DNA from: a virus
IMG/VR virus record: IMGVR_UViG_3300009370_000003
DNA: 64,000 nucleotides
Direction: 5' to 3' (one strand)
The notes under the pieces were generated by a model, which saw only the letters and a list, made by a program, of their open reading frames with translations, was not told the origin of the DNA and did not search any database. Positions 1 through 64,000 of this stretch are shown one piece after another (within the stretch, counting starts at the first letter, position 1; each line of letters begins with the position of its first letter). The position numbers and the translations under genes are program-made.

Positions 1-24
1 AAATATAATTTATCTTTGTATTTT

Positions 25-252
25 CTACCATTCTTTGTAGAACCCTTCTTTTTCGTTATCGTTATAACCTTTCATGTAAATCTTTATTTCATATGGAGTT
101 AATTCTGTCACCCTAGGGCCGTTATAGGTTCCAAGGGGAAAGTAGTGAGGATTTATACCTCGTCTATAATAAGAGTCGCAAGTACCTCTATCGTAAAGAC
201 CACCATTGACTGTATGTTTTTCTGCAATTCCTTCTGTATTATATGGACTCAT
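25..252 (-). CDS. hypothetical early protein
   Basis: ORF with GGAG RBS before ATG at 252, directly downstream of an early promoter copy (283-315). Confidence 0.6.
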   Translation of the reverse strand: MSPYNTEGIAEKHTVNGGLYDRGTCDSYYRRGINPHYFPLGTYNGPRVTELTPYEIKIYMKGYNDNEKEGFYKEW

Positions 253-282
253 AATTACTCCTTTTTTCCCATTTCTACATAC

Positions 283-315
283 ATTATACTTAAAAATGGA
301 AGGCATTGTCAAGGC
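283..315 (-). promoter_or_regulatory. early sigma70-type promoter (copy 1 of 5)
   Basis: GCC-TTGACA-ATGCCTTCCATTTTTAAG-TATAAT; same extended motif at 21204, 45416, 48331, 48476. Confidence 0.85.
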
Positions 316-623
316 AAAAAGGGCTGTTTTTCGTAAATATATGCCTCATTTTCGTCTATTTTTCCGTCAATTAGCACCTGTTTTAGGTGCATCATCTCAT
401 GAGCAAGGGTTATTTCCTTCTCATCGTCCATTTTGATATAAATGTCAATATAAGTCCTTTTTCCTAGGACTCTAGGGTACTCTATAAGGCCCTTTTGGGA
501 CATAGATGGGGGTAACCTCTTGATATGGACTATAGCGTCCTTAGAATCGACGCTAAGTGCCTTAGAATGCATTACTGCAAGGTCAAGTAATCTGTCTTGT
601 TTACAGTAAATCTCCATTATCAT
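309..623 (-). CDS. small HExxH (zincin-like) protein
   Basis: ITLAHEMMHLKQ motif followed by E-x-E-A-Y. Confidence 0.55.
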   Translation of the reverse strand: MIMEIYCKQDRLLDLAVMHSKALSVDSKDAIVHIKRLPPSMSQKGLIEYPRVLGKRTYIDIYIKMDDEKEITLAHEMMHLKQVLIDGKIDENEAYIYEKQPFLP

Positions 624-774
624 ACTCTAGTTCTTCGACTTGGTCAGGGTCGACTTCACAACCACAAAATGGACAATGACATACAACATAATGGTGGATA
701 TCCATTTCATGTTCTATATCACACTCTGATTTGCAATTTGAACAATAACACTTAATTATTTGAGATTCAGTCAT
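601..774 (-). CDS. small zinc-ribbon protein, 57 aa (not in ORF track)
   Basis: hand translation MTESQIIKCYCSNC...CHCPFCGCEV..., two CxxC pairs, ATGA overlap with upstream gene. Confidence 0.7.
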   Translation of the reverse strand: MTESQIIKCYCSNCKSECDIEHEMDIHHYVVCHCPFCGCEVDPDQVEELEYDNGDLL

Positions 775-1016: not shown

Positions 1017-1188
1017 CTACATATCTCTCTTTAAGATACTTTTGCCATAACCAATCAGTATATTTAGCAACATAGGCTTCTCTATCTAATCTATTTGGTG
1101 CTGATAATGGGTCGTTGTGTTCGTCACAATAGTCTAACCACATTCTTGTGCAGAATGATCTAAACGGTGCTTCTGTTCTATCCACCAT
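1003..1188 (-). CDS. hypothetical protein
   Basis: likely start at 1188 (MVDRTE...) rather than 1293, which would overlap glutaredoxin. Confidence 0.55.
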   Translation of the reverse strand: MVDRTEAPFRSFCTRMWLDYCDEHNDPLSAPNRLDREAYVAKYTDWLWQKYLKERYVGEEI

Positions 1189-1717: not shown

Positions 1718-1729
1718 TGCTCTCCTGTG

Positions 1730-16599: not shown

Positions 16600-17889
16600 C
16601 TATTTATCCCCTTTCTTCCTTAATAACATGCGTTCACGCCATTTCAGTGCAAGTTTGTTTGAGGGAAACTTAGAAGTCCATGTCATTAATTTACCATATA
16701 ATGTGTTTGCTTTCTTATCTAAAGAAGCTAGGTCATCGTCATTCTTAATCTCTATGAAATCCTTTTTGAATATAGATTTATATTCGGCTGCATTCTTTTG
16801 TGCAGCGTCCCAGTCACCTTTAACAATTTCGGGTGGGAGTTTTCTTGCACGAAGTTGATTTCTTTTCTGTGCATTGTCGAGACTTGCATTTACAAATACC
16901 ATTTTGTATTCGTATCCTAACTTATCTAATAGTTTCTTATATCCTTTAATTTTAGATGATCTTGCACTGGTAGTATCAAAGATTAATCCTAACCTTCCAC
17001 CAATATAACTTTCTAAACTTTTCTTTGTAATTGCTTTTGCCTTTGCACGAATTGGGTCACGAAGGGCAGCGTCCATATCTCTTAAATCGAGACTAAGTCC
17101 AGCCTTCTTAAGTCCATTCTCAAATGCTTTATCAGTGTTGACCATTCTTAGTCCTAGTGCTTTCAGAGCTAACTTCTTAACAACTGCAGATTTACCACTG
17201 CCCGGCCCACCTGATAGGAATACTGCTTTGAATATACCTTGGTCATATACTCCTTCTTTAACTAAGTCTTCTAGGATATATGTGGGTAGGACTCCTTCAT
17301 TGATTCCCATACCCTTTCTAATTGCTTTGTATAGTGCCTCTTGGTCTCTCTTATTCTTAGAAGGGACTCCTTGTTTAAAGTTATCAAAGTCATCGTCTTC
17401 TGCATATGCTCTCATTTTACTTGCAGACATTCCTGATACATCATCTGCGTCAGGGTCACGCTCTCCAGCTGATACAATGTTAATTGATTTGAAGTTATAA
17501 AACCCGTGTCTTGCTTTTACATTATTGTATTTTGTTATAAGGTTCTGAAATTCTTTTACTCTATCTGAACCGACAACCATGTTAATTGAACTATATCCTT
17601 TTTCATGTAAGAAATTACAAATGTCAAATACAGTTCTTATAGCTGAATCATTAATCATAACTTTCTTACCAAAGAACTTCTTAAGATATTTTATCTTGTC
17701 TTTGTGTGTAAGAGGATTCTTTTTCTTATCATTAGAATGAGAAGTAAATAACATAATGTCATCTGCTCTAACCTTTCTTAGTTTCTCTACTAATTTTGCG
17801 TGTCCTGTGGTGGGTGGATTAAAGCGACCAAAAGTGAATGTCACACTTTTATCTTTTGCTTCTGTTAGCCATTTACCAAATTGTTTCAT
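16600..17889 (-). CDS. HIGH-type nucleotidyltransferase ('cytidyltransferase') fused to P-loop kinase
   Basis: FGRFNPPTTGH, VGSDR, GMSASKMR; then GGPGSGKS Walker A and LIFDTT. Confidence 0.85.
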   Translation of the reverse strand: MKQFGKWLTEAKDKSVTFTFGRFNPPTTGHAKLVEKLRKVRADDIMLFTSHSNDKKKNPLTHKDKIKYLKKFFGKKVMINDSAIRTVFDICNFLHEKGYSSINMVVGSDRVKEFQNLITKYNNVKARHGFYNFKSINIVSAGERDPDADDVSGMSASKMRAYAEDDDFDNFKQGVPSKNKRDQEALYKAIRKGMGINEGVLPTYILEDLVKEGVYDQGIFKAVFLSGGPGSGKSAVVKKLALKALGLRMVNTDKAFENGLKKAGLSLDLRDMDAALRDPIRAKAKAITKKSLESYIGGRLGLIFDTTSARSSKIKGYKKLLDKLGYEYKMVFVNASLDNAQKRNQLRARKLPPEIVKGDWDAAQKNAAEYKSIFKKDFIEIKNDDDLASLDKKANTLYGKLMTWTSKFPSNKLALKWRERMLLRKKGDK

Positions 17890-24784: not shown

Positions 24785-24961
24785 TCTCTTTTCTTTTCTT
24801 TCTTTTCTTTCTTGTCTGATGTCTTTAATAGTGTCGTTTCTTGCTAAAGACTTCTCTATCATAGTTTTGATTAGATAGATTTGACATTCCAAATGAATAA
24901 TAAAACCAAAGATAACCGCTATCATGGCAATGTAGAAACAGTCTAGAAATTCAATAACCAT
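24773..24961 (-). CDS. small membrane protein
   Basis: N-terminal TM, basic tail. Confidence 0.6.
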   Translation of the reverse strand: MVIEFLDCFYIAMIAVIFGFIIHLECQIYLIKTMIEKSLARNDTIKDIRQERKERKEKRKTL

Positions 24962-25425
24962 TATGATACCTCGTCAATTTGTTCTTGGGTGACTGTTCCT
25001 TTTTCTATAAGAAGCTTGCGGTGGATTAAATGTTGTTCTTGGATTTCTTCTTTATTACCACCAGCATAATCAACTGCATGGTGGTCTGCAATCATTTGTT
25101 GATTTATACTAACTTTACCTTTCACATGACCATCTCTTAAATTTGCTTCATGTTTAACAAATAACTCACCAAGAATTCTACCAAACTTCCCTTTATCATG
25201 AGAGATAAGGGTGACATCTTGTTCTTCTAACAAGTGTTGTAAGTGGTATTTTGATGCCTTGCCAAAGAGCTTTTCGACTTTATCTCGTGTGCGAGATTCA
25301 GGGGTATCTATACCCTTTAGCCTCACTCTTTGTTTCTTATAAACCATTCCGAATCCTAAATCGATATCTACATCAACTGTGTCACCATCAACCACGCGGG
25401 TAACATTTACATTATATTCGTACAT
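24961..25425 (-). CDS. thermonuclease (SNase-like)
   Basis: VVDGDT, RVRLKGIDTPE, KFGRILG. Confidence 0.92.
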   Translation of the reverse strand: MYEYNVNVTRVVDGDTVDVDIDLGFGMVYKKQRVRLKGIDTPESRTRDKVEKLFGKASKYHLQHLLEEQDVTLISHDKGKFGRILGELFVKHEANLRDGHVKGKVSINQQMIADHHAVDYAGGNKEEIQEQHLIHRKLLIEKGTVTQEQIDEVS

Positions 25426-25449: not shown

Positions 25450-25878
25450 TTATAGGTTACTTTTATTGTGGTTTCTATGTTCGATTTTTGATTCCCAGTC
25501 CTTTACTGCTTGTGAAATTGAATCTTCTGCAAGAACTGAACAGTGAAGTTTAATTGGTGGGAGCTCTAGTTTTTCTGCAATGTCCTTATCTTCGATAAGT
25601 TTTGCTTGTTCTATTGTTAATCCCATTAACATATCAACAAATAATGAAGAGGAAGCGATTGCACTACCACAACCATAAGTTTTAAACTTAACATCTTCTA
25701 TAACATCTGTTTCGGGATTAATTTTTAAATCAAGTTTCATGACATCGCCACAAGCTGGTGCTCCAGTCATTCCTGTTGCAACATTTGGGTCTTTGGGGTC
25801 GAATCTACCTACACCGTGTTTATCGGGGTTGTTGAGGACATTGTTGAATCTATCTACAACCTTTTTACTGTATGCCAT
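25450..25878 (-). CDS. iscU: Fe-S cluster scaffold IscU
   Basis: APACGD, KTYGCGSAIAS, LPPIKLHCS (HscA-binding LPPVK-like). Confidence 0.96.
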   Translation of the reverse strand: MAYSKKVVDRFNNVLNNPDKHGVGRFDPKDPNVATGMTGAPACGDVMKLDLKINPETDVIEDVKFKTYGCGSAIASSSLFVDMLMGLTIEQAKLIEDKDIAEKLELPPIKLHCSVLAEDSISQAVKDWESKIEHRNHNKSNL

Positions 25879-29086: not shown

Positions 29087-29369
29087 TTTTGTCCCTCTCG
29101 ACTTGTTCCTCTAGGAGTTCCACTAGGATATCTCCCATAAGCTTTTCTAATGTATCATTATTTAGTAGTTCGTCCATTGTCAAATTTTCATCGTTAGGAA
29201 GTCTACGAATTGTTCGTTGAAAATTTAAATGTGGTTTACCTTCAACAAACTCCACATTACCATACTGATACACTAACCCTTCAAATTCTCCACTGACTAT
29301 TTCTATGCCAGCATCTTTCTCATGTGGATTTTCTACCACTTGAAATACATTTTTAAATAATTTTGACAT
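29055..29369 (-). CDS. hypothetical protein
   Basis: G.FEGLVYQYG.V pattern; coupled to TET gene. Confidence 0.65.
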   Translation of the reverse strand: MSKLFKNVFQVVENPHEKDAGIEIVSGEFEGLVYQYGNVEFVEGKPHLNFQRTIRRLPNDENLTMDELLNNDTLEKLMGDILVELLEEQVERDKNEQRSIEGTD

Positions 29370-30385
29370 TAGTCTCCTAAGAAACTATCTAAGCTACCAT
29401 GTTTGTCTCTATGATGGTGTCCGATAGGATTCTCTGTTTTACCTCTTACACCTTTTGTTGCAACATCACTTCCACAATATGCAACACATGTATGTCTGAC
29501 ACCTTCACCTTTAATTTGAGTCACACCATGCAATTCATTTGAATCTGCAATAATAACATCACCATCATCTGCATCGATACCAATTCCATATCTTGGGAAT
29601 GATAGATATGCGCCTTCAAAATCTCCACAACGAAATACACACATTGTTGTCATTCCAAAATCTAAATCGTCACCGTCAATATGTGCAGACATTTTTCCAG
29701 CACCTTCAACATATGAATATTTGTTTGCAGATATAGAAGTGAACGGAGCTCCTTGCAACCAGTATTTTTCTTCAACACACTCATCACAAAAATCTCTTTG
29801 TTTTTTCCAAACTTCGGGGGCCCCTATTTTTAATGCTTGTTCATTTAGAACTGCTATCTCTTGCATGCTTTCCCACTTCTCTTGGTTTCTTTTTAGTTTT
29901 GCCCAACCACTTAAACCAATCATTCCCGTAAATCTTCCTCTCTTATGTCCCATAAAAATAGAATGAATAGGGTTTGCTTCTGCAATTCGATTGAACTCAC
30001 CATTTTTCTTTAGTGGATAGTATGAGTTTGCAGTTCTTAATTTATAATGAACTCCCTCTATCATACCTTTCTTTGCCATTTCATCTTTATCAATAGGGCC
30101 AGCTGCATTTGCACGAAGTGTAGATACATCTTCAATAGATTGAACTGTTGACCTTAATTCTTCTAACTTCTCACCTTCGTATACGCCTTTAACAATACAT
30201 GCAAGTAGAGGTGGTTCCTCTCCAAGTGTAGATACTGGTTTATAAATCTTGGTTAACTCGTGGTCTGTTCCCACGGTAGATACTAGGTCTGTGACTTCAC
30301 TTCCGTCTAACCACTGACCGTTATACTTCTCCATAGTTTCTTTAAAACCATGGTCAACTGTTGGTGTGTGTGTTCTAATTGACAT
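29369..30385 (-). CDS. TET/JBP-family 2OG-Fe(II) dioxygenase
   Basis: SAHIDGDD (HxD), GDFEGAYLSFPRY, GDVIIAD..ELHGVT, RHTCVAY; overlaps the C5-MTase stop. Confidence 0.85.
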   Translation of the reverse strand: MSIRTHTPTVDHGFKETMEKYNGQWLDGSEVTDLVSTVGTDHELTKIYKPVSTLGEEPPLLACIVKGVYEGEKLEELRSTVQSIEDVSTLRANAAGPIDKDEMAKKGMIEGVHYKLRTANSYYPLKKNGEFNRIAEANPIHSIFMGHKRGRFTGMIGLSGWAKLKRNQEKWESMQEIAVLNEQALKIGAPEVWKKQRDFCDECVEEKYWLQGAPFTSISANKYSYVEGAGKMSAHIDGDDLDFGMTTMCVFRCGDFEGAYLSFPRYGIGIDADDGDVIIADSNELHGVTQIKGEGVRHTCVAYCGSDVATKGVRGKTENPIGHHHRDKHGSLDSFLGD

Positions 30386-31616
30386 TATACTTCTCCAAAA
30401 TATTTTCTAAGACACTTTCAACTAATGCCTTAAGACAAAGTGGTGCGACCATTAATCCTATTCTTGCACCCTTGTCGTTATAATCTCCCGTACTCCTATA
30501 GTCATCGGGAAGAGTCATAATCCTTTGTAATTCCTTTGGAGTATATATCCTTTCTCCACTGGGGTGAAAATGATTACCACCCATAAACTTTGGTTGACAC
30601 CCTTGTTCAGTTAATGAATGTGCAGCTTGAGTCCAAGGTACAATCCTTGACATGTAATAAGAATGTTTTTCATCTTCGGGGTCAATGATACCCCTTGCAA
30701 TTTGTTCTTTGAACCACGGGCCAACGATATCGTCTCCAATACTAACAACCCTTTCCATATTATTTATGCCCCTCATACCTAAGCATGGGCCCGAGTTGGG
30801 ATAGTCAGGGTGAGTATCAAATCCAAATACCCAATGAGCCTTTGAAGAATGTCTCAAAGATTCTTCTAGGTATTTTGCATCGGTTATGTTTTGTTCGTCA
30901 TCTTGTAAGTCTTCTATTGCATCTCTTACAGTCCATTCTTTTTGAGAAGGTTCAGGAAATACACTTCCTAAAACCATCCATGGCATTCCAATTTTATCTA
31001 ATACATCATTACGAACTGCAAGTATAAATGTTCTTTCTCTTTTTTGTGGAACTCCATGTTGGGCTGCATTCATAACTTTATAAACTGCAGAATATCCTTG
31101 TGCTTCAAAGTCTGTAATCATTCTATTCAAATGGTCTCTTGCATAGTCCATTGTAAGACCTTTTACATTTTCACAAATAACAATCTTGGGTTGGAGTTCA
31201 CCAGTAATTCTAATTACTTCCCAAGTTAAATCTTCAATGTTTTCTTGCTTCATTCCATATGCAATCTTCTCTTTGTTCCAACCTTCTCGTTTTGATCCAG
31301 CCATTGAAAATGGCGGACAAGGTGGACTTGCATCTAGAATATCTATTTCACCAACTCCTAGTCCACTAAGTTCCATGATATCTTTACCAGTAACTTTTTT
31401 AATGTCTTTACATTCGTGAACTGTGTTTGGGAAATTTAAAAGGTAGGTATCAACATGAAGTTGTTGAAATTCATTCATGTATTTACAATCTCCACCTAAG
31501 AGTTTGTATGCACATGAAGAACCGCCTCCGCCAGCAAAGAAAGTTATATAATTAAACTTCTTTGTTGAAGCACCTTCTTCAAGGTCTGATAATCTATATC
31601 TAAAATATTCGTTCAT
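30375..31616 (-). CDS. DNA (cytosine-5) methyltransferase
   Basis: FAGGGG (I), SPPCPPFS (IV), ENVKG (VI), Q.RER (VIII), R..T..E..RIMTLPD (IX). Confidence 0.95.
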   Translation of the reverse strand: MNEYFRYRLSDLEEGASTKKFNYITFFAGGGGSSCAYKLLGGDCKYMNEFQQLHVDTYLLNFPNTVHECKDIKKVTGKDIMELSGLGVGEIDILDASPPCPPFSMAGSKREGWNKEKIAYGMKQENIEDLTWEVIRITGELQPKIVICENVKGLTMDYARDHLNRMITDFEAQGYSAVYKVMNAAQHGVPQKRERTFILAVRNDVLDKIGMPWMVLGSVFPEPSQKEWTVRDAIEDLQDDEQNITDAKYLEESLRHSSKAHWVFGFDTHPDYPNSGPCLGMRGINNMERVVSIGDDIVGPWFKEQIARGIIDPEDEKHSYYMSRIVPWTQAAHSLTEQGCQPKFMGGNHFHPSGERIYTPKELQRIMTLPDDYRSTGDYNDKGARIGLMVAPLCLKALVESVLENILEKYNVN

Positions 31617-31636
31617 AAAAAAATCCCACTAAACAT

Positions 31637-31674
31637 ATTATATTATATTTAGCGAGATTTGACTAGAGGGTTTT
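31637..31674 (-). promoter_or_regulatory. AAAACC-box promoter for MTase-TET operon
   Basis: AAAACCCTC-TAGTCA-N17-TATAAT. Confidence 0.7.
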
Positions 31675-31675
31675 A

Positions 31676-32185: not shown

Positions 32186-32376
32186 AACATCTCCCTTAAA
32201 GGATTCCAACTATAATCGTAAGTGGAGAGTGTTCTAGTCCCACCTTGACTTGCTATAGTATTACATAACTTAATCATTTCTCTATCTGTCAAATCATTAA
32301 GATATTTGTTTAGGTCTGCTTCTATTGCGACTCTGTCATTTTTTGCACACTCTTGTATGCCCTCTTCTTTTTTCAT
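32182..32376 (-). CDS. hypothetical protein
   Basis: GGAG RBS, promoter at 32405-32442. Confidence 0.6.
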   Translation of the reverse strand: MKKEEGIQECAKNDRVAIEADLNKYLNDLTDREMIKLCNTIASQGGTRTLSTYDYSWNPLREML

Positions 32377-32442
32377 AATTACTCCATAATAAAATGATAC
32401 CACCATTATATCACATAACAGTGGTATCTGTATAGTGGGTTT

Positions 32443-32853
32443 CTATGAAATTTTGATAGAAACTGGTTTGTCTTCTTCGGGAATGACTCTCTCTAAGTTG
32501 ACACTCAATATACCGTTTTTATACACTGCACTGGCGATTTCTACATCGTCTGCAAGTGTAAATCTACGGTTGAATGCTCTAGAAGCTAATCCTTTATGGA
32601 CAAAGTCCTTCTCAGAATCTTCTGAACTACCCTCGATAACAAGAATGTTTTTCTCTTTAGTAACAGAAATTTCCTTCTTATCGAATCCAGCAACAGCAAG
32701 TTCAACGGTGAAATTTTCATCGTCTACTTTTACCACATTGTATGGTGGATAGTTTGATTGTGAGATTGTAGACATTCTTTCGAGGTCTTCGAAATATCTA
32801 TCAAATCCTATTGCGAACGGTCTGAATTGACCAAATATATCTAAATGCGTCAT
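32443..32853 (-). CDS. hsp20: small heat shock protein Hsp20
   Basis: NYPPYN, ELAVAGF, HKGLASRAF.R.F.L, NGIL. Confidence 0.95.
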   Translation of the reverse strand: MTHLDIFGQFRPFAIGFDRYFEDLERMSTISQSNYPPYNVVKVDDENFTVELAVAGFDKKEISVTKEKNILVIEGSSEDSEKDFVHKGLASRAFNRRFTLADDVEIASAVYKNGILSVNLERVIPEEDKPVSIKIS

Positions 32854-32960: not shown

Positions 32961-34838
32961 TCAAGAGGGTTTTTGTAATTTTCTTAATTTCCTATCAATT
33001 AAAGGTGCATATATCTTAACTGGAATTTCCTTTCCTTTAACATTTATTTCGTCAAGATACTGCCATTCACAATCAACTTGTTTCTTTGTGAACTCTGACA
33101 TTATAATTGGAGTGTCATATTGCCTTGTTTGGACTTCGAGTCTAGCTGCAAGGTTAACAGCGTCACCGACAACTGAATAATCGAATCGTGCTTCACTTCC
33201 CATGTTTCCGACAATGCATGGGCCTGTATTAATTCCCGTGCCAATGACTACTGGTGGTAAATCTAATCCTTCCCTTTCTATATCTATATTCATTTGTTCT
33301 GTTAATAGTTCTATTTCTATTGCAGATTTCAAAGCCATTTGTGCATGGTCAGGGCAATCAAGAGGAGCTCCCCAAAATGCCATCAAGCAGTCACCCATAT
33401 ATTTGTCGATGGTTCCACCATTTGCTAGGACAATTTTAGACATACCGTCTAGGAATCTATTAATTAGTTCCACTAATCCTTCGGGGTCGTCATTCTTCAT
33501 GTATGCTTCTGATATTGGAGTGAACCCAACTATGTCTGCGAAGAGGAATGAAAGTTCTCTTCTATCTCCACCAAGTTTCAATAATTCAGGGTTTTTTTGG
33601 AGTTCTTCAACCATGTCAGGAGATAAATATTTTTGAAACTGCTTCTTAATAAGTTCTTTGAGTTGATAAGTTGTATAGTATTTGTTGAAGGAAGCATGTC
33701 CGAAAACTATAATGGAGGCAATCGATGAGTAGAAAGTATCGAAAAGAACGAGAGATGAAGACCACCAATAGAGAGACCCACCCACCTGAAATCCAACGAA
33801 GACTAGAGAAGCTATCCCCGCAACGGCTGTGGGAAGTGTGTAGACCATTACCAATATTCCTAGAAGGACTGTCAGCAGAAGAGCGAGAGATAAGAATTCA
33901 AGATAGTAGGATTGTTGTATTCGAACATCTTGCAAAACGGTTTGGAGAAGTGAGGCTTGAACTTTATGAGGATACATTACACCCACTGGGGTTGAAACTG
34001 GATTATTAAGTCCCTCTGCAGTTAATCCCCAAATCAGTATCTTACCTTCAAGGTCTGAGTTGGGTAAATCCATTGCAGATATTCTCTCAAAATCGAACCA
34101 GTATCCAATTTGAACATCTGCAGTTGAGGTTGTTTCTATGGGAGGGCTCCTACCCATTCGAATCCACTCGATTCCAGCTTCTTCCGTGACTCGTGTTTGA
34201 TAATTCTTATGGTCACCAAATGCACGAAGAACCTCTAGTGCAACCGAAGGATATACAACATCATTTGCAGATACTATTAATGGTGCTGAACGGATTGTCC
34301 CGTCAAAGTTTGGTGTTCCTGAAATACTAGGTGTTGTGACTGTCACTCCTGAACCATACGAATTCTGTTTCAGGATATCAACTGGTGAAGCAATGCCAGA
34401 GAAGCTCCAAATATGGTCTTTTATCTCGCCGTCACCGAACACCGAAGTCTTAACAAATGGTGCAGACCCAGTATCTAATTGAGTTGTGGGTGCAGCTGAT
34501 AAAATCGATAGCCGATTAACTAATCCTTCTGCAAAAGCTTCGTCCCCTGAAAACCTATCAGGGTTTTTAAACAACTGGGTAAATACATGAGTGTTGGTAT
34601 AATGTGATTCCAACATTATATCTGCATAGATATTTCTCGGCCATGGGTATTGACCATACTTCTGTAGTGACTTCTCGTCTATGTCTACTAGAACTATGTT
34701 ATCGGTTTGTTCTATTTCTTTTGATTGGTGTAGGAAGTCAAACCAAGACCATGTAACATTCTCAATAAGATATGGATTCCATACCTTAAGTCCGAATAAT
34801 AACGAGACAGTTATTAATACTGTCTTCCACGAGTACAT
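32961..34838 (-). CDS. CHASE2-domain class III adenylate cyclase
   Basis: N-terminal TM, IVLVDIDE.SL..YGQYPWPR (CHASE2), 3 TMs, FADIVGFT, IDKYMGD, GDAVNLAARLE. Confidence 0.95.
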   Translation of the reverse strand: MYSWKTVLITVSLLFGLKVWNPYLIENVTWSWFDFLHQSKEIEQTDNIVLVDIDEKSLQKYGQYPWPRNIYADIMLESHYTNTHVFTQLFKNPDRFSGDEAFAEGLVNRLSILSAAPTTQLDTGSAPFVKTSVFGDGEIKDHIWSFSGIASPVDILKQNSYGSGVTVTTPSISGTPNFDGTIRSAPLIVSANDVVYPSVALEVLRAFGDHKNYQTRVTEEAGIEWIRMGRSPPIETTSTADVQIGYWFDFERISAMDLPNSDLEGKILIWGLTAEGLNNPVSTPVGVMYPHKVQASLLQTVLQDVRIQQSYYLEFLSLALLLTVLLGILVMVYTLPTAVAGIASLVFVGFQVGGSLYWWSSSLVLFDTFYSSIASIIVFGHASFNKYYTTYQLKELIKKQFQKYLSPDMVEELQKNPELLKLGGDRRELSFLFADIVGFTPISEAYMKNDDPEGLVELINRFLDGMSKIVLANGGTIDKYMGDCLMAFWGAPLDCPDHAQMALKSAIEIELLTEQMNIDIEREGLDLPPVVIGTGINTGPCIVGNMGSEARFDYSVVGDAVNLAARLEVQTRQYDTPIIMSEFTKKQVDCEWQYLDEINVKGKEIPVKIYAPLIDRKLRKLQKPS

Positions 34839-35002
34839 TATGTTATCCAACAAACTGGATATACACACCAGTAAGGATTAGCTACTCCTAAAAGCCACAA
34901 TATAAAAATCCATAAGGGAATCTGTATCCAAGTTTTTCCTTTAGACCATTCCCTGAACCTGATGGCGTGCGGAACCATCTTATTAAACAACCATTGTTTC
35001 AT
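34838..35002 (-). CDS. small Trp-rich membrane protein
   Basis: WIQIPLWIFILWLLG helix, CVYPVC; start uncertain. Confidence 0.5.
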   Translation of the reverse strand: MKQWLFNKMVPHAIRFREWSKGKTWIQIPLWIFILWLLGVANPYWCVYPVCWIT

Positions 35003-35112
35003 TAGGAGACCAGTCGATAAAACGACAGTGCTAATCCAACCAATAAGGTTCCTAATACTATAAAAACCCATTTGATATGAAATTTATAATTTATTATTTT
35101 ATCCCACATAAT

Positions 35113-35973
35113 TTAATCTTGTGTTACTGTAATTGTGCAACCGCCGACTGTATAACAAGCTTGAGACAAAGTATATGACTGAGCTGAGCCTGCGTGTTGC
35201 GTTAAATCTAAAGTAGTTCCATAAGTACCATTCAAAGTAATATTTGCAGTATGTTGAGCATTACCGTCTTGAAGATAGTCAACAATATTAGAGTCATTAT
35301 GAACTGTTAAGTTTAATGTCTTTGAACTGTCTCCTTTCTGTTTTCCAAACACATCATTGTCATCTCCATAGAGATAGATTCTTGCTGAATGTCCGTCACA
35401 ATTATTGTTTGCACAATTCCTTTGCTGTCCTTTTATTGAATTATCACTACCATGGATATCTATGGTGACAGTATGATTACCGCCGTCATTATTATCTATT
35501 GACCATGTAGTGTCGTTACGGTTTGAGAATTCATATCCTTGGGCCCACCAAAGTGTATTGTCATCTCCATATGCTATGTGGAACTGAATGTCGTTTTTAC
35601 CGCAGGACGAATTTTTCGTGCAGTTTTGGTAGAGTTTAAGTGATTGTCTTTCTCCGTCAATATCGCCACCCCAACCATAACCTGAGCCCCAGCTGGGGGA
35701 ATCATTTGCGTATCCAATTTCATTATTGTTTCCTTTTTGTAAGATTTCTATATCGTAATCGTCTCCGTCTCCAAGTGAGAAAAAGATATTGTTGTTGAAT
35801 CCTTCTTGGTCGATAGTTAGGTCGAGATTATCTCCACCCGCTGTGACCTGATTAATATTGATACGGTTATCATCATCAGCAAATGCTTTAATTGCTGAAA
35901 ATAACACCATGAGTGTAAAACACCCTATGAATAATTTTGCTGACCAGTCCAATTTTCCCTCAGTTTGTTTCAC
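35113..35973 (-). CDS. curlin-like (CsgA/CsgB-like) secreted repeat protein
   Basis: signal peptide AFA|DDDN; repeats I-x-Q-x-G-x-x-N (IDQEGFNN, ILQKGNNN, IHGSDN, LQDGNA); likely GTG start. Confidence 0.75.
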   Translation of the reverse strand: MKQTEGKLDWSAKLFIGCFTLMVLFSAIKAFADDDNRININQVTAGGDNLDLTIDQEGFNNNIFFSLGDGDDYDIEILQKGNNNEIGYANDSPSWGSGYGWGGDIDGERQSLKLYQNCTKNSSCGKNDIQFHIAYGDDNTLWWAQGYEFSNRNDTTWSIDNNDGGNHTVTIDIHGSDNSIKGQQRNCANNNCDGHSARIYLYGDDNDVFGKQKGDSSKTLNLTVHNDSNIVDYLQDGNAQHTANITLNGTYGTTLDLTQHAGSAQSYTLSQACYTVGGCTITVTQD

Positions 35974-36119
35974 CCACAAATCCACCAAACAAGTAAAACA
36001 AGAATTACACCTTCAGCCCATGCTATCCAAAGTGCTTGGTAATCTGTAAGGTTGAATCTATCGATAAACTTCCAACAAAGTCTTTCGTGCCATTCTAAAA
36101 AGTCCTTTAAATATTTCAT
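35970..36119 (-). CDS. small membrane protein, 49 aa (not in ORF track)
   Basis: MKYLKDFLEWHERL...GVILVLLVWWICG with AGGAG RBS. Confidence 0.65.
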   Translation of the reverse strand: MKYLKDFLEWHERLCWKFIDRFNLTDYQALWIAWAEGVILVLLVWWICG

Positions 36120-36141
36120 ATTTACTCCTAATGTCTTTTAT

Positions 36142-37284
36142 TTAGTTAGTTTGCCTGATTACAATTTCAATATTGGTGTCTCCTTGACCGAAATCAATAA
36201 TCCCTTCATACCCGTCTAAAGTTAAATCTAAGTATCCTAAACCTCCAGCTGCAATGATTATCTCAATCTTTCCATTCACATCTCTATAGAGATATAGGTC
36301 TCCGTCTTGGACAAATACATTAAACTGTGAGTCTTTATTGAATCCTTGGACTGCACCTTTAATATTGAATTGTCCTAGGGTTGCTCCACCACCAGTTGAG
36401 CCTGACCCTTTAATCTTTTTATCTAGTGCTTCTACCACATCTAATAAATCTGTCAAGAAGTCAACTCCAAGCATATCTATATCAAGCTCAGTGAAATCAT
36501 CTTCCATGGTATCTTCGAGTTCGTCTGACTCTAAATCATTGAACTCTAAAAAGTCTACATCTAGTATTCCAGTATCGTCATTTTGGTCGTCAGCGACAGC
36601 GTCTTCTATTGCTTGTTTAACTTCCGCAGGTGGAGAAACAATAAACATGTTATCAATCATTGAAGGTGTTATGTTTTGAATAATAACATTTTGTGTTGGA
36701 GGAGATTCCAAAGTAGAAACCATAGTTGCCTGATATGGAAGATTGAGTAAGGTTTCTCCACCCTCATTAAATACTTTTATCTCACCACTAGAACCACCTG
36801 TTTCATCAGGTAGCAGAATCACGAGTGTTCTCCCGAGCTCGTCAATAGTAGTTGTAAAATCTGTGCCGTTGATTGCTATTTGAGCTGTCGGCGTTGAAAT
36901 ATCTATGTTTGCTTTCTTTATTTTTTTCCCTTTCCCTGAAGCAAACCTTGCTGTTCCTTGAACCATTCTCAAGGACATTTTTGATAATGAGGGATTAGGG
37001 TCATAGTATACTTCGTCTATGTATACTACTGTGTGTTCGATTAAATCAAGTTCCTCTTCGTCTAAGAACTCAATCTTCATTCTGCCGTTTACTGTTTCGG
37101 CTTCGTCATACAAAAAAATGTCACCACCGACATTATTCTGTTGCACTTCATTGTTTCTAACTATCTGGCCTATACCAGTAGACTCAACAATGTCTCCAAT
37201 GGGGTCTGCAAATGCGACCCCACTGAATAACAATATATTAAGAATCGTTAGCTGCGTCTTTCTGATTGATTTGAATAACTGCAT
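36142..37284 (-). CDS. secreted FecR-domain protein
   Basis: signal peptide AFA|D; ETVNGRMKIEF.D, L..GTARF, TPTAQIAINGTDF FecR signature; acidic C-terminal region. Confidence 0.85.
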   Translation of the reverse strand: MQLFKSIRKTQLTILNILLFSGVAFADPIGDIVESTGIGQIVRNNEVQQNNVGGDIFLYDEAETVNGRMKIEFLDEEELDLIEHTVVYIDEVYYDPNPSLSKMSLRMVQGTARFASGKGKKIKKANIDISTPTAQIAINGTDFTTTIDELGRTLVILLPDETGGSSGEIKVFNEGGETLLNLPYQATMVSTLESPPTQNVIIQNITPSMIDNMFIVSPPAEVKQAIEDAVADDQNDDTGILDVDFLEFNDLESDELEDTMEDDFTELDIDMLGVDFLTDLLDVVEALDKKIKGSGSTGGGATLGQFNIKGAVQGFNKDSQFNVFVQDGDLYLYRDVNGKIEIIIAAGGLGYLDLTLDGYEGIIDFGQGDTNIEIVIRQTN

Positions 37285-37984
37285 TATCACTTGTTATATC
37301 TAATGTAATTAAAGCATTTGGAGTTGCACAACTGTTTCCAGCTCCACTTACACATGTTCCTGATATCTGATTGATATCCACATCTGCACTATCTCCTGTT
37401 AATTCAACCGTCATTTCGTTTGCACCATCTTTCTGTAATGTATTAACATTATTTGAGTCACCAGTTATATCCCAGTTCCAAACAACATCATCGGATTCAA
37501 AATCCAAATCAAATACATTCGAAGAACCCACTAAGACTAAATCTGCATTTAATCTTTCTGCTCCTAAACCATATCCTTGGTCAATGTCAAAGATGTTTGA
37601 ATCTCCTTGAACAGTGAAAAGATAATCAGTAGCATCTGCTGACCCTACATTACCAATGTTCCAGTCTATCTTGTTCGAATCACCTGTGAAGGTTAATGTA
37701 TATTTCGAACTGTCTGCAACAACGGGCCCGAATAAGACATTCTGATTACCAGTAAAGTCTAAATCGAACTCCAAAGTTTGTCCTGTAATAAGCATGGCGG
37801 TTATGCTTCCGCTGGAACCATCGTTACCACCTATCTTATTACCAAAACCTATTTGGTCAATGTATATTTTTAATGTATCACCCGTTTGGGTAATCTTAAT
37901 TTCATTGTCATCAGTGGCTGCTCCGAAAACGATAGGCGAAGCCAATAATAATATTGCTCCTAATAAACTAATTAGTTTCTTCAT
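37238..37984 (-). CDS. curlin-like (CsgA/CsgB-like) secreted repeat protein
   Basis: signal peptide; ITQTGD, IDQIGFGN, GDSNKI, QGDSNIF, GSSNVF, GDSNNV repeats; immediately after csgG. Confidence 0.8.
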   Translation of the reverse strand: MKKLISLLGAILLLASPIVFGAATDDNEIKITQTGDTLKIYIDQIGFGNKIGGNDGSSGSITAMLITGQTLEFDLDFTGNQNVLFGPVVADSSKYTLTFTGDSNKIDWNIGNVGSADATDYLFTVQGDSNIFDIDQGYGLGAERLNADLVLVGSSNVFDLDFESDDVVWNWDITGDSNNVNTLQKDGANEMTVELTGDSADVDINQISGTCVSGAGNSCATPNALITLDITSDNAVIQINQKDAANDS

Positions 37985-38897
37985 TTTCGTTATACCCCTC
38001 GGGGAACTTTTCGTCATACCCCGTTATGTTCCAAAAACCTCTTTCGTGTCCTTGGTATACTAATTCCAGCACTCCAGCTTCAATAGCTGTTCGCACTGCG
38101 TAAGTCACTGACTCATTATTTCCAATGCCATCCTCTATCTCTATTAATTGAGTTCCTTGTTCTACGAAACGGAAAACATCGCCTCCCGTTCCATAACTCA
38201 ATATAGTCTTTCGAGTTTGGACATTTAATAAAACCTCTCCAGTAAGAACTGATACAGCTCTTATTGAAATGGTCACGACATCTTGACGATATCGTTTACT
38301 ATAACCAATACCTAGTGTCCGTGCGCCTCGTCCACCTGTTCTTATATTGGTATCATAACCAATTACTCCACCCTCTATTATCATACCCGCAAAGAGTAGT
38401 GGTTGTATTCCTTCGGCTTCGTCTTTACCTTCAGCCTTAGCAAATTCTGTTCTTGCAGACCTAATAATCTGCCTTTCTCTAACTAAGTGGTCTATACCAC
38501 TTCGTTCTACTACCCTAAACCAAGTACCATTTCCAGCCGTTTTAAGAGCGTCTATGACCATTTCTTGTCCACCTTGGGTCACTGCAGTAGAGAAGCTTGC
38601 AATGTTGTCTACGGACTTCCTCTGTCCAGTCTTATCTAAGAACTGATAAACTGCAACTACTGGCATCTCTTCTGCTGGTGGTAATCTTAATAGTTCAAGA
38701 AATGAGGGTAGTCTTACTACTTCGGGGTCTTCCACACAAATATATTTTCGTGCAAACTGTTTCTTTACCCCAGTGTATACATCTTTCTTAAACCCTTCGT
38801 CCCAGCGACCACAATTTTGTGGGTCGTCTGTCCACTTAGGAATTGAAGCACAGCTACTCAATACTAAAAGTAATGCTAATGAAAGAACCTTAATCAT
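37968..38897 (-). CDS. csgG: curli secretion channel lipoprotein CsgG
   Basis: lipobox LSSC; VAVYQFLDKTGQRK, FSTAVTQG, WFRVVER, ERQIIR, IEGGVIGYD. Confidence 0.95.
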   Translation of the reverse strand: MIKVLSLALLLVLSSCASIPKWTDDPQNCGRWDEGFKKDVYTGVKKQFARKYICVEDPEVVRLPSFLELLRLPPAEEMPVVAVYQFLDKTGQRKSVDNIASFSTAVTQGGQEMVIDALKTAGNGTWFRVVERSGIDHLVRERQIIRSARTEFAKAEGKDEAEGIQPLLFAGMIIEGGVIGYDTNIRTGGRGARTLGIGYSKRYRQDVVTISIRAVSVLTGEVLLNVQTRKTILSYGTGGDVFRFVEQGTQLIEIEDGIGNNESVTYAVRTAIEAGVLELVYQGHERGFWNITGYDEKFPEGYNENEETN

Positions 38898-39433
38898 TAG
38901 GTTCCTCCGTCGCCACCCCCGCCATCGACAGGAATCGCGTCAGGGTCTTGTGCAAAATTACCAGTTCCTATAGGTATTTCAATAATGGTTGATGTTCCGT
39001 CTTCACCTATAATGGTCATTCGTATGAACTCAACCCCTGCTTCATCTGTTAATACTTCCCAAGTAATAGTGTTTCCTTCTAGAATAAATGAACCAAATGA
39101 ACTTGAATTATCATTTGAGAACATAGATTCAACTAACTGTTTTGCAAGTGTAGCATAAATTCTGCTTTCTAAGTTTCTAATAAATTTTGCAAGAACCGTA
39201 TTGTCTGCTTCTCTTTCTGCAGCTTTCCTAGCTGACTCCAAAGCATCTTCGATTTGTTTCTTCCGAGAAAATTCCTGATTCTCGATAGTTAAATAATGAG
39301 CACCCTGACCCTGTTTACTAAACGATGGATTTCCAAATTTATGAACAATCTCATCTGCGTAAACATTCGTTGCATGTAGAAATAAAACCCCTACAATGAT
39401 AATGCTACTTACGACTTTTTTTATTACTGACAT
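38897..39433 (-). CDS. csgF: curli assembly protein CsgF
   Basis: signal peptide then EIVHKFGNPSFS (CsgF F.NP.F motif), F..NLESRI; adjacent to csgG. Confidence 0.85.
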   Translation of the reverse strand: MSVIKKVVSSIIIVGVLFLHATNVYADEIVHKFGNPSFSKQGQGAHYLTIENQEFSRKKQIEDALESARKAAEREADNTVLAKFIRNLESRIYATLAKQLVESMFSNDNSSSFGSFILEGNTITWEVLTDEAGVEFIRMTIIGEDGTSTIIEIPIGTGNFAQDPDAIPVDGGGGDGGT

Positions 39434-60768: not shown

Positions 60769-62145
60769 TTAACCTAATGGTTTTAGTTTAGTTAATGCCT
60801 CGGAATACCTAGCAATAGTTGGGTCAAGGACTTCTTCTACAGTAGTAGAGAATTCACCTGTTCCTTCCTCTTCCTTGGTTTCTTCCGAGATGGATTCACC
60901 GTCAACACCGAAATAAGCTTCTTTGATTTCTGCAACTTTCTCTTCGAAATCTGCTTCGTCAGTGAAATCTATTCCATTTGATAATGATTCCATTTTCTCT
61001 TTTTGTGATTCAGACAAGTCTTCACATGCCTTTCTCACAACATTTTGTCTTTTAAGACCACCAATCTCTTCTGTTATTTCCATATTCTTGGAAACTTCAG
61101 CATCAAGTTTGGATTCCATCTCGTCAAGACGATTTGCGAGTTCGTCAACGACATTATACTTATCTTCGGGAACTTCAACATAATGTTCTACGAACAATTT
61201 TTTGAGTCCTTCAATAAAGTTTTCAGTCATTTCTGATCTCAAACCCCTTTCTATTGCGAGTTCGTTTTCTTTCGACCACTCTTCAGCACAATATGTTAAG
61301 TATTTGTCAACAGAACCAGTTAGTTCTTCTTTGACAGTCTCAACTTGGGTTTTTAAATTCTCTGAATACTGCTCTTCTAGCTCTTTCTTGACTTCGTCAA
61401 CTTTGCTATGAACTGCAGCTTTGAAGATAGTTTTTGCTTTTTCAGCATTCTCTTCTGATAAATCTAGTGATTCCGAGATTTTAGATAGGTCGTCATCTAT
61501 TTCAATCTCAACTAATGAAGATTCTACTTCAGCGGAAGCTTCTTCTTTGACGGATTCTTCTTTCTCGTCTTCTTCATCTTTTGATTCAGTTTGTTCTGCA
61601 GAAAGTGATTCTACAAACTTTTTAACTTCTTCTTGAGATGAAGCCTTTAATGCTTCTACTATTTTTCGTGCAACTTCTGCCTTAGTCAAGGATTCATCGA
61701 CCTCGTCTTCTGACAATGAAGCGAACAACTTGTTCATTTCTTCTTTGTTCAGACCTTTCATACTGTCGACTGCAGCCTTGATTAGTTCCATTTTAGATTC
61801 AACTGGAGCTTCTTCTTCTTTAGTTTCTGCTACAACCTCGTCTTCTTCTGAACTTTCCTCATCTTCTTTGAGTTTCTCGGGCTTCTCTGCTTTGCCAGCA
61901 TTCTTGTTTACTGCATCTTTAGCTTCTTTCGAACCTTTTTCTGCAGCTTTAATACTTGCAACAGCTTTGTCAACAGGATTTTCATCAGGTTTGACGACTT
62001 CGCCTTTACCGCTTTCGATTTTCTCTTCAGCAGACGAACCTTGTTTGTGAGCAGACTTGTCACCCTTTTCGGCACCTTTAGTAGGTTCTTCCACGATGGA
62101 ATCAACCTCTTCGGTGTTCTCTACTTGGTTTTCTAAATCTGACAT
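60769..62145 (-). CDS. gp22: prohead core scaffolding protein
   Basis: acidic coiled coil, AKTIFKAAV, VDKYL.Y.AEEW..EN..AIE.GLR.E. Confidence 0.93.
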   Translation of the reverse strand: MSDLENQVENTEEVDSIVEEPTKGAEKGDKSAHKQGSSAEEKIESGKGEVVKPDENPVDKAVASIKAAEKGSKEAKDAVNKNAGKAEKPEKLKEDEESSEEDEVVAETKEEEAPVESKMELIKAAVDSMKGLNKEEMNKLFASLSEDEVDESLTKAEVARKIVEALKASSQEEVKKFVESLSAEQTESKDEEDEKEESVKEEASAEVESSLVEIEIDDDLSKISESLDLSEENAEKAKTIFKAAVHSKVDEVKKELEEQYSENLKTQVETVKEELTGSVDKYLTYCAEEWSKENELAIERGLRSEMTENFIEGLKKLFVEHYVEVPEDKYNVVDELANRLDEMESKLDAEVSKNMEITEEIGGLKRQNVVRKACEDLSESQKEKMESLSNGIDFTDEADFEEKVAEIKEAYFGVDGESISEETKEEEGTGEFSTTVEEVLDPTIARYSEALTKLKPLG

Positions 62146-62192
62146 AAATTTCTCCTGTTTATGTAATAATTGATTACTTTTTTATTTATATG

Positions 62193-62846
62193 TTACAGGC
62201 TTTCAACAAACCTTTTCCATAGTTCCAATTTGGTTTCTTCCAACTGATTTAGCTTTGCAGTCCTCAATTCTGACTGCATTTTGTCTAAATCCTTTGCTTT
62301 TAAGATACCACTCTCATAGACCCATTCAACTCCTTCCATTATTCCTTCAACGAAGGCTTCAGGTGCAGAAGGGTCTGCTACGATATCAGCAGCAGTTGCT
62401 AACTGAAAATCGTCTTTTACATACTGAGCATTTCCTTTAGACTCTAGTGAACCTAGTCCTCTAGAAGAAACTCCCAGTTTAGCACCATCATCAATCAAGT
62501 TTTTAACTATCTGTCCGTTTGGTGTTGATAAAATCTTTGCTCTTCCCACATAGTTGTTTCCATCTTCTTCCAACTTGGTTATCATGTGAGATACTTTGTC
62601 AAGATTGATCGTTGGGCCTTCGGGGTGTCCTAGTTCTCCAAACGCTCTATCTTCTTTTATGAATTCTTTGTTATACCTTTTAACTTCTGTTTGTATAACT
62701 TCTTTGGGGTATATGCGGCCATTACGATTCTTAATTTCAGCTTGCATAAAGATACCTTCGATAAAGTAATCTTTCTTACCGTCTTTGTTTTCTTCTACAA
62801 TTACAGGACTAACCCCGTAATCTTGAAATTCAGATATTAATTTCAT
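62193..62846 (-). CDS. gp21: prohead protease
   Basis: NRNGRIYP, GELGHP, GVSSRGLGS, DIVADPS. Confidence 0.97.
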   Translation of the reverse strand: MKLISEFQDYGVSPVIVEENKDGKKDYFIEGIFMQAEIKNRNGRIYPKEVIQTEVKRYNKEFIKEDRAFGELGHPEGPTINLDKVSHMITKLEEDGNNYVGRAKILSTPNGQIVKNLIDDGAKLGVSSRGLGSLESKGNAQYVKDDFQLATAADIVADPSAPEAFVEGIMEGVEWVYESGILKAKDLDKMQSELRTAKLNQLEETKLELWKRFVESL

Positions 62847-63123
62847 TCGTAATTTCCTCTATTGATATACCTTCTTCGGACATGTCTTGCAATATTTGCT
62901 TCACACTCTGCATACCAATTTTTAAGGACTCTTCGTCCCCGAAGGTTTCTTGTATTTCATGTCCGTTAAGAAATACTGAAATACCCTCTTTACACTCGGT
63001 GTAATATATATTTATAGCTTCTGCACCAAGTTTTAAACTTTCTGTTCGAATCAACTCATGCCCATCGGGACAAACAAACTTTGCCTCATGGAGCTCCTGA
63101 GCCAACTCCTTAAAATCTTTCAT
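62830..63123 (-). CDS. probable prohead core protein
   Basis: position between gp20 and gp21; MKDFKELAQELHE leader. Confidence 0.6.
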   Translation of the reverse strand: MKDFKELAQELHEAKFVCPDGHELIRTESLKLGAEAINIYYTECKEGISVFLNGHEIQETFGDEESLKIGMQSVKQILQDMSEEGISIEEITNEINI

Positions 63124-63317
63124 TAAGACTCCTCTGTTTCAGAAGGTTCGGGTTGATTATCTGCCCAATTAACAGACTTCTCAACTCGTTTCATATCAAC
63201 AACTTCTGCAGCTTTCTGTTTGATTCCGTCAAAAACATCTGTCTTTGCTTGTTCTAACTTTCCTGCTTCAATTCCGTCAACTATCTTTCTTGATATGTTT
63301 TCTTCGCTCATTACCAT
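63123..63317 (-). CDS. probable prohead core protein
   Basis: small protein directly after portal. Confidence 0.6.
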   Translation of the reverse strand: MVMSEENISRKIVDGIEAGKLEQAKTDVFDGIKQKAAEVVDMKRVEKSVNWADNQPEPSETEES

Positions 63318-64000
63318 CCCCCGTCATCTTGAGAACTATCGTCACCGCCTTCCGCTTCACCTTCACTGGCAATTTGTTTGTCGATGAGTTTAATATCCTC
63401 TTCGGTTTGTCTTAACACATACTTTCTAATGTACTCATTAGAGTAGTATTTACCAACATAGTCTCCTATGGTTGAAAGAGTATCTAATCTCTCTCTTAAA
63501 ATTTCTGCTTCTTTCAACTCTGTAAAGTGGTTGTCAGTCGCAAAATCAAACTGTATGAAGTCTTTGACTTTATCAAACTCTTCACCAGTTAAAATTTCCT
63601 TAAGAACCAAATGTGTCTTAAGGACATCTGTAAAAATTCTTGCAAACTTCTTTTGAAGTCTGTTTGTGAACTTATTAAACTTAAGTTCATCTCTTGAGAT
63701 TTCAGAAGCACGACCCATATTGAATCCGTTATCTGCTTCCATTCTCGTTGCAGGCACATTTAAAGATTGATATAACTTCTTCTTGAAGTATTCAATATCA
63801 TCTATGTCTGCAAGGTTTTGACCGCCTGGCAAAGTGGTAATCTCTGTTCCTCTACCACCTTCTCTCCTAGGTAACCAAAAGTCCTCTAGCATTGACATGT
63901 GTTTTCTATCGTCCTTGATTTCACCTGTCTCTGCATTATACACGAGTTTATTTCTATACTTGTGCATAACATCTGTAAGGTATTGTTCTGCCTTTGCTTT
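63311..64000 (-). CDS. gp20: portal protein (C-terminal part; 5' end outside window)
   Basis: MLEDFWLPRREGGRGTEITTLPGG, EISRDELKF. Confidence 0.97.
   Translation of the reverse strand, partial: KAKAEQYLTDVMHKYRNKLVYNAETGEIKDDRKHMSMLEDFWLPRREGGRGTEITTLPGGQNLADIDDIEYFKKKLYQSLNVPATRMEADNGFNMGRASEISRDELKFNKFTNRLQKKFARIFTDVLKTHLVLKEILTGEEFDKVKDFIQFDFATDNHFTELKEAEILRERLDTLSTIGDYVGKYYSNEYIRKYVLRQTEEDIKLIDKQIASEGEAEGGDDSSQDDGGW

Follow-up and report, generated by a model that had tools for sequence, protein, structure and literature searches.

Restriction-type sites survive at GpC in the genome of a marine T4-like phage that carries a cytosine methyltransferase and a TET-type dioxygenase

Can a DNA modification that is limited to GpC protect a phage genome from restriction, and does it act on phage or on host DNA? 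This has been asked (10.1101/2023.12.21.572611) for phage C5-cytosine DNA methyltransferases (MTases) linked to TET-type dioxygenases, the characterised members of which are GpC-directed (Burke et al. 2021, PMC8256090), as the original prediction for the present sequence had also stated. The same question is raised by IMGVR_UViG_3300009370_000003, a viral DNA of 64,000 nt that was analysed over its whole length (the window) and that encodes an adjacent C5-MTase and TET/JBP-type 2-oxoglutarate (2OG)-Fe(II) dioxygenase of 5-methylcytosine (5mC). The original prediction held that restriction sites had been purged from this DNA unless one of their cytosines lies in GpC. We found that such sites are indeed far below expectation and that the survivors almost exclusively overlap GpC. 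We consider it likely (probability about 0.8) that the phage modifies its GpC sites and purges the restriction sites that cannot be marked, the nucleases being blocked by the mark.

The window has a G+C content of 36.6% and is ~94% coding, with all genes on the minus strand. It encodes T4-type replication and head genes, and its gp23 is ~75% identical at the nucleotide level to gp23 of the Pelagibacter phage HTVC008M. It belongs to an uncultured marine T4-like phage of the pelagimyophage type.

Site avoidance and the GpC exemption

Expected counts were derived from 200 shuffled genomes, in which synonymous codons were permuted inside each of 90 genes so that proteins and codon usage were kept. 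A maximal-order Markov model, used as a second null, gave the same ranking of motifs. We call a site flanked when the motif cytosine is preceded by G (GpC), and unflanked when it is not. For the main motifs z ranged from -5 to -15 (Table 1). GGWCC, noticed earlier as missing, was absent from the entire window, and glycine codons preceding proline were GGC or GGG in 23 of 23 cases (P ~1e-17), where GGC/GGG make up 18% of glycine codons overall and GGA/GGT 82%. The motifs that cannot contain GpC (GGWCC, ACGT, GATC, GTAC) were absent or the most depleted, and the GATC and GTAC survivors in the window had no flank pattern. Just one of the 12 strongly depleted 4- and 5-mers contains GpC, and GpC-containing palindromes stood at or above expectation (observed/expected (O/E) 1.54 for GGCC, 1.44 for TGCA and 2.3 for GAGCTC). 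The scarcity of GATC had been suspected; ACGT, GTAC, CGWCG, CCTGCA, CTCAG, GGATG/CATCC, CAATTG and ACTAGT extend the list, as does the finding that GCA is not exempt. We take the avoided words to resemble Type II specificities.

Where a motif can be flanked, the counts split accordingly. HCCAGA was absent against 75.5 expected, while GCCAGA occurred 15 times against 11.3 (P = 5e-14 for 15 of 15). CCGG without GpC was likewise absent (25.4 expected), and CCGG with GpC on at least one strand was found eight times (8.2 expected). CCWGG with no, one or both strands flanked occurred 0, 0 and 2 times, against 18.3, 5.5 and 0.3. Unflanked CGWCG and CCTGCA were missing (35.3 and 23.4 expected), with 5 and 6 flanked copies against 9.7 and 3.4. 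CTCAG was partially rescued: GCTCAG occurred 11 times against 9.6, and fully unflanked CTCAG 8 times against 44. In the codon-preserving comparison that the original prediction had proposed, unflanked copies of CCAGA, CCGG, CCWGG, CGWCG and CCTGCA are gone and flanked ones are near the null. Every position it had given held. Its flank rule extends to all 15 CCAGA/TCTGG sites, of which it had listed seven, to all eight CCGG sites, of which it had listed six and missed those at 11828 and 17202, and to both CCWGG sites.

GGATG/CATCC, CAATTG and ACTAGT were depleted without GpC rescue; in the window GCATCC occurred 3 times against 14.9 and GCAATTG 0 times against 11.4. An unbiased scan of all 4-6-mer cores with each of the four flank bases gave eight rescue events in the window, six of them a G before C. 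Rescue in such scans was almost solely of this kind in the window, in 80 MTase loci, in the cultured OM43 phage Melnitz and in a relative termed G002, and no G-before-C rescue was detected in relatives sharing only gp23. The exemption holds firmly for GCC; evidence is weaker for GCG and GCT, and GCA contexts lie outside it.

Some features of the window stand apart from the flank rule. The GATC survivors were unevenly spread: 17 fell in 0-25 kb, 13 in 50-64 kb and one in 25-50 kb, where the null gave 77, 34 and 62, respectively. The lone site of the middle stretch lies within the MTase gene (31294). GGAGG (15 against 62) and GAGGAG (3 against 20) were lost mainly on the coding strand, which probably represents avoidance of internal Shine-Dalgarno-like sequences and not restriction. 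CATCC seemed strand-biased at first, with 13 plus-strand copies and no GGATG, but the bias was discarded, as it vanished under strand-specific expectations of 56.8 and 19.6.

Table 1. Genes and motifs discussed in the text; positions are those of the window unless another genome is named, and null means are from 200 codon-preserving shuffles
Feature	Position	Strand	Observed	Null mean	Remark
C5-cytosine DNA methyltransferase	30375-31616	-			PF00145 (1e-49), TIGR00675
TET/JBP-type 2OG-Fe(II) 5mC dioxygenase	29369-30385	-			PF12851 (1.3e-11); 11-nt overlap with the MTase gene
Peroxiredoxin	31676-32209	-			Pfam; directly upstream of the MTase gene
HSP20	32443-32853	-			Pfam; upstream of the MTase gene
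GGWCC			0	39.7	Minimum of the 200 shuffles 29
ACGT			0	107	
GTAC			14	120	
GATC			31	173	
CCGG	5336, 11027, 11828, 15054, 17202, 21670, 58720, 58780		8	33.5	GCCGG on at least one strand at each
CCWGG	3415, 63825		2	24.1	Both GCCWGGC, GpC on both strands
CCAGA (both orientations)			15	86.7	
CCAGA survivors	1205, 5497, 13501, 34396, 45190, 60053		6		All GCCAGA
TCTGG survivors	11932, 12305, 22530, 37164, 39750, 41848, 46958, 49321, 54987		9		All TCTGGC
GGATG/CATCC			13	76.4	
CGWCG	548, 4563, 5797, 12243, 38908		5	45	All GCGWCG on one strand
CTCAG			24	66	
CAATTG			0	25	
ACTAGT			0	11	
CCTGCA/TGCAGG survivors	1794, 8635, 28018, 54039; 21500, 63749		6		All GCCTGCA
Curli-like operon	32961-39433				CHASE2-adenylate cyclase, two curlin-repeat proteins, FecR-domain protein, CsgG
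Cytidylyltransferase fused to AAA/zeta-toxin-like kinase domain	16600-17889				Replication module
Staphylococcal-nuclease homologue	24961-25425				Replication module
NifU-like protein	25450-25878				Replication module
482-aa methyltransferase of G002	L168:9387-10835	-			TSPPY motif IV
DruA-like and 328-aa genes, HTVC008M	84548-85540, 99535-100659				
DruA-like and 328-aa genes, G003	L171:2838-5337				Slot

The methyltransferase-TET cassette and its relatives

The MTase motifs FFAGGGGSS, SPPCPPFS (S97-P98-P99-C100), ENVKGL and QKRER are invariant across 12 relatives, so that motifs I, IV, VI and VIII and the catalytic Cys100 are all in place. At least 97% of 74 orthologues of the TET protein, that of Melnitz among them, keep H235-x-D237, H286 and R297. 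The gene order over 29369-32853 is HSP20, peroxiredoxin, C5-MTase and TET/JBP, followed by a 104-aa open reading frame (ORF; phrog_3998, function unassigned in PHROGs), lysozyme and DNA polymerase B (polB); in some relatives 1-1.7 kb of additional DNA follows TET. A look-up in sequencing runs located the cassette sequence in marine and seawater metagenomes from several studies, and RNA runs held only small shares of cassette words. Scans of genome contigs returned no close cellular homologue of the MTase (best 39%).

More than 100 relatives of the MTase, at 60-95% identity, were found in IMG/VR, and the TET gene adjoins the MTase gene in 78 of 80 related loci fetched. We denote contigs and genomes with the C5-MTase, mostly together with TET, as MT+ and relatives without it as MT-. 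The 70 more distant loci (797 kb) contained 7 GGWCC against 492 expected, and GpC flanked 121 of their 124 CCWGG and 46 of their 49 CCGG sites; CCAGA was neither avoided nor G-biased in distant MT+ loci. Among MT+ loci of at least 8 kb, 51 of 52 had no unflanked CCWGG or CCGG, against 6 of 27 and 3 of 28 in two MT- groups. The remaining one, IMGVR_UViG_3300000168_000002 (L050; 5/11 unflanked), may be a chimeric or recently recombined contig. Per Mb, MT+ and MT- DNA contained 0-4 and 320-760 CCWGG sites without a flanked strand, 0-367 and 156-338 with one flanked strand, and 31-123 and 7-45 with both strands flanked.

The effect was graded, in that survivors overlapped GpC in 75-84% of cases for depleted motifs versus 17-23% for non-depleted ones. 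Of the sixteen 4-bp palindromes, only GpC-containing ones exceeded expectation in MT+ loci (AGCT 1.41, GCGC 1.36, GGCC 1.79, TGCA 1.13, CGCG 1.30), an excess seen in 96% of MT+ loci versus 44% and 4% in the MT- groups. GpC-containing 4-bp palindromes are depleted in MT- relatives, GGCC in both G003 and HTVC008M and AGCT, TGCA and GCGC also in HTVC008M. GTGCAC was absent from ~1.3 Mb of MT+ DNA against 232 expected.

The pattern was present in the MT+ whole genomes G006, G007 and Melnitz and absent from the whole genomes G003 and HTVC008M, which were MT- in a cassette search with positive controls. Melnitz has the arrangement polB-MTase-TET of clade II/B type; it lacks GGWCC (0/61), and none of its 68 CCWGG and 15 CCGG sites is unflanked. 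GCC is exempt in this phage, and CTGCAG (14/59) and GTGCAC (0/24), with GCA context, are avoided. The signature tracks the cassette over ~80 contigs and a cultured phage, and is missing in the compared relatives without the MTase-TET pair except for the G002 lineage. In the Melnitz record (MZ577097.1) the MTase is labelled 'HhaI methylase' and the TET protein hypothetical.

In clade I/A of the TET-linked phage MTases the neighbours are HSP and redoxin genes and GpC[C/T/G], not GpCA, is methylated; in clade II/B polB lies upstream and the methylated target is GpC[C/T] (PMC8256090). The clade I/A pair C5-MT43/TET43 (contig 14 of TMED261; PMC8256090) resembles the window in its adjacent C5-MTase and TET/JBP genes with intact motifs, its HSP20/redoxin neighbours and its origin in a marine metavirome. 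From this HSP20-redoxin-MTase-TET neighbourhood the window MTase is predicted to be specific for GpC[C/T/G]. The same rule, GCC/GCG/GCT but not GCA, was measured for C5-MT43/88 and is implied by the window's own signature. The earlier claim that the surviving sites record the specificity of the MTase is supported in this refined form. Clade I/A differs in having a glycosyltransferase or P-loop kinase next to TET; neither was found adjoining TET in the window, where the 104-aa ORF and lysozyme gene are located. Genome composition, from which the window signature comes, was not examined in the clade I/A papers.

Among solved structures, SpCmoX of Synechococcus phage S-B43 (PDB 8yf3; E 4e-67, ~35% identity) is the closest. 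It is a GC-specific cytosine C5-carboxymethyltransferase that marks the C of GpC, and experiments showed S-B43 DNA to be GC-modified by this homologue of the window MTase (PMC12783734). In S-B43, CCGG (8/120) is the sole deeply avoided tetramer, and its survivors are GCCGG in 8 of 8 cases. SpCmoX and the window MTase have the SPPC catalytic motif in common. However, the carboxymethyl-binding Arg350 of SpCmoX aligns with an invariant Leu388, and the window MTase is paired with TET and has no CmoA or amide-ligase neighbours, which argues that it is a methyltransferase.

The chlorovirus enzyme M.CviPI, likened here by description only, is also a virus-encoded, dinucleotide GpC-specific C5-MTase, and it methylates every GpC. 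Pan-GpC protection of this kind was not what we found, as GCA contexts are not exempt (GTGCAC is absent in MT+ DNA, and GCATCC and GCAATTG are unrescued). T-even phages also use cytosine modification (glucosyl-hydroxymethylcytosine) against restriction, but in them all cytosines are replaced before replication and no site avoidance is needed, whereas only about a quarter of the cytosines in the window are markable and the rest are dealt with by purging sites. Classical site avoidance in phages (Rusinov et al. 2018, PMC6286503) shares with the window a strong loss of Type II-like sites, mostly palindromes, of 4-6 bp; flank, context and overlap were not considered there, and avoidance in the window depends on the flanking base.

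Proposed origin of the mark and of the selecting nucleases

We propose that the C5-MTase would methylate the C of GpC after replication, in GCC and probably in GCG and GCT but not in GCA, and that the adjacent TET enzyme would oxidise 5mC to 5-hydroxymethylcytosine, both as expected from family and neighbourhood. The selection pattern suggests that restriction-type endonucleases of the host population would fail where the cytosine they recognise is marked; the exemption of GpC itself points to a nuclease blocked by a cytosine mark as the selecting agent. By the counts, selection has purged the sites out of reach of the mark (GGWCC, ACGT, most GATC and GTAC) and all unmarked copies of CCAGA, CCGG, CCWGG, CGWCG and CCTGCA, and G-preceded copies stay at neutral frequency. 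The phage would in this way combine two anti-restriction strategies, modifying the targets of a dinucleotide enzyme and purging the remainder. As a by-product, the genome sequence would record its own modification specificity and the specificities of the nucleases faced.

Several points weigh against this proposal. Taking the MTase specificity from the neighbourhood typical of the clade, and also from the signature, is in part circular. Rescue at GCG and at GCT comes from one motif each in the window, and flanked CGWCG survivors are missing from the closest relatives and from Melnitz. GCGC (8 against 22.7) and AGCGC/GCGCT (1 against 13.7) are depleted in the window despite their GCG and GCT, which goes beyond a GpC-protection model; avoidance of densely modified sites read by methyl-directed nucleases is one possibility. 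Related contigs share ancestry, so that replicate counts are not fully independent. In the presumed hosts, SAR11 and OM43, few or almost no restriction-modification (R-M) systems have been reported (PMC7029224, PMC9516812). Finally, one relative, G002, has the signature without the cassette.

The reported scarcity of R-M systems in the hosts would fit nucleases of another origin, either encoded by the phage for degradation of host DNA, as in chloroviruses, or coming from competing phages or mobile elements, in which case the avoided set would not be the host's. A core of avoided sites (GATC, GGWCC, CCWGG, CCGG, CGWCG) is also common to Melnitz, with its OM43 host, and the presumed SAR11 phages, and tracks the cassette more than the host taxon. 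We nevertheless regard such an origin as unlikely. In the 40 window ORFs that could be annotated, a search for restriction-endonuclease domains gave none, and the sole nuclease is the non-specific staphylococcal-nuclease (SNase) homologue; at least 10 specificities per phage are also implausible. Moreover, the avoided sets vary among close relatives (ACGT, CAATTG, GGATG, CCAGA), as would be the case for strain-variable host defences, and HTVC008M, which has no cassette, also avoids many sites. The avoided set of ~12 specificities more likely represents a pan-population repertoire. That it records the R-M repertoire of the host, as the original prediction had it, we can only infer. Earlier literature had noted an unexplained depletion of GANTC in pelagiphages.

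G002 (IMGVR_UViG_3300020055_000005; 151 kb, 83% complete) bears on the source of the mark. It contains polB but no PF00145 or PF12851 gene, and carries the signature: GGWCC is absent (0/87), CCAGA is G-flanked at 15/16 sites and none of 51 CCWGG sites is unflanked. Its slot between redoxin and lysozyme/polB holds a gene for a 482-aa S-adenosylmethionine (SAM) methyltransferase with a marginal match to PF01555, and five contigs near-identical to G002 have the full signature, no C5-MTase/TET and an SPPY-type MTase in the same slot. Since the genes flanking the slot are just 75-80% identical at the nucleotide level to those of MT+ relatives, the signature must be actively maintained, and we rejected a passive legacy. 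The cassette is thus not the only route to the signature, and the GpC protection of the window might be genuine but stem from another phage enzyme or a host factor, alone or alongside the C5-MTase/TET pair. This we consider quite improbable. Neither the window nor any other MT+ DNA examined contains the G002 enzyme, MTase and TET occur together in nearly all of the 80 signature-bearing loci, and the rule for the +1 base agrees with the published MTase specificity. Among distant SPPY-MTase relatives (54-61% identity, 74 loci) no GpC exception was seen, so the SPPY-MTase family as a whole is not GpC-linked. The simplest reading is that the window cassette and the G002 enzyme are two enzymes with convergent targets.

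For G002 itself, either the SPPY enzyme also marks GCC or a cassette is encoded in the 17% of the genome that the contig lacks. Judging from the SPPY motif, the marginal PF01555 match and synteny, the 482-aa protein is probably an N4-cytosine methyltransferase; comparisons with PDB sequences, NCBIfam and PHROGs were not decisive for it, and the Foldseek matches of its AlphaFold2 (AF2) model (pLDDT 70) were all to generic class-I SAM methyltransferases. G002 also specifically avoids GGATC, a 5' G being found on 2 of 265 GATC sites.

That there is no modification at all, the G flank arising from composition, codon-pair constraints, mutation bias or flank-reading nucleases, we regard as highly improbable: some depleted words are plainly non-restriction (coding-strand GGAGG/GAGGAG, GCAGCA), but the codon-preserving null reproduces the GCCAGA and flanked CCGG counts and not the unflanked ones, at least five unrelated motifs obey one flank rule, deamination of 5mC would erode the GpC sites that are in fact spared, MT- relatives of equal composition do not show the pattern, and we know of no enzymes that read HCCWGGD or HCCAGA.

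Other flank rules and the use of the signature

A different exemption was observed in two MT- genomes. In HTVC008M (NC_020484.1) a 5' G is found on at least one strand at 83 of 83 GATC and 43 of 43 GANTC sites; by number of G-flanked strands (none, one, both) the counts are 0/55/28 and 0/33/10, with unflanked baselines of 57% and 45%. The same holds for all 16 GATC sites of G003. These counts hint at an uncharacterised modification that lies inside GGA/TCC. Common to these genomes, and absent from six genomes with the GpC exemption, are a DruA-like protein (PF14236, phrog_19197) and a 328-aa protein. In G003 their genes, together with a small cytidylyltransferase gene, occupy the slot that holds MTase and TET in the window. 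A QueC-like gene was rejected as partner, as it did not co-track with the exemption.

Further flank patterns were seen outside GpC. In contigs with 54-61% SPPY-MTase relatives (L189-L262, GC 32.5%), CGCG has an O/E of 0.02 with all 8 strand-instances in CCGCG, and GTGCAC survives as GGTGCAC in 16 of 16 cases; both are candidate rules different from GpC. In Melnitz, survivors of GTCTTC (GAAGAC) are G-preceded in 15 of 15 cases (GGTCTTC) without GpC overlap, and GGAACC (0/57), AACGTT (0/43) and CGTCTC (0/23) are absent.

Besides the cassette, the window carries a curli-like module that is also present in HTVC008M, G002 and G003; an operon of CsgG, curlin and FecR with a CHASE2-cyclase has been described as a pelagimyophage marker (PMC7029224). 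Three further genes of its replication module are listed in Table 1.

Site avoidance and protective phage MTases are both already known. Avoidance conditional on the phage's own short-motif modification was not described in PMC6286503, PMC8256090, 10.1101/2023.12.21.572611, PMC9004378 or PMC12783734. We give even odds that flank-conditional avoidance is a general fingerprint, readable from sequence, of the modification motif, of its anti-restriction function in nature and of the R-M specificities circulating in SAR11 and OM43. Used in this way, it points to an SPPY-type MTase that replaces C5-MTase/TET with the same GCC exemption in G002, and to a GGA exemption in HTVC008M that co-occurs with the DruA-like protein and its 328-aa partner.

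Protection from restriction by GpC-limited marks has been doubted (10.1101/2023.12.21.572611). The signature argues that such marks do protect and offers an evolutionary answer to the question posed at the outset: in natural phage DNA totalling over 1 Mb, restriction-type sites persist only at places open to the mark, which argues that phage DNA itself bears the mark and is thereby shielded from cutting in nature. With this signature, modification specificity could also be predicted from a genome sequence, including the base at +1. And the finding sharpens a puzzle: the ocean's most abundant bacteria are believed to be without R-M, yet site avoidance in their phages ranks among the deepest known.

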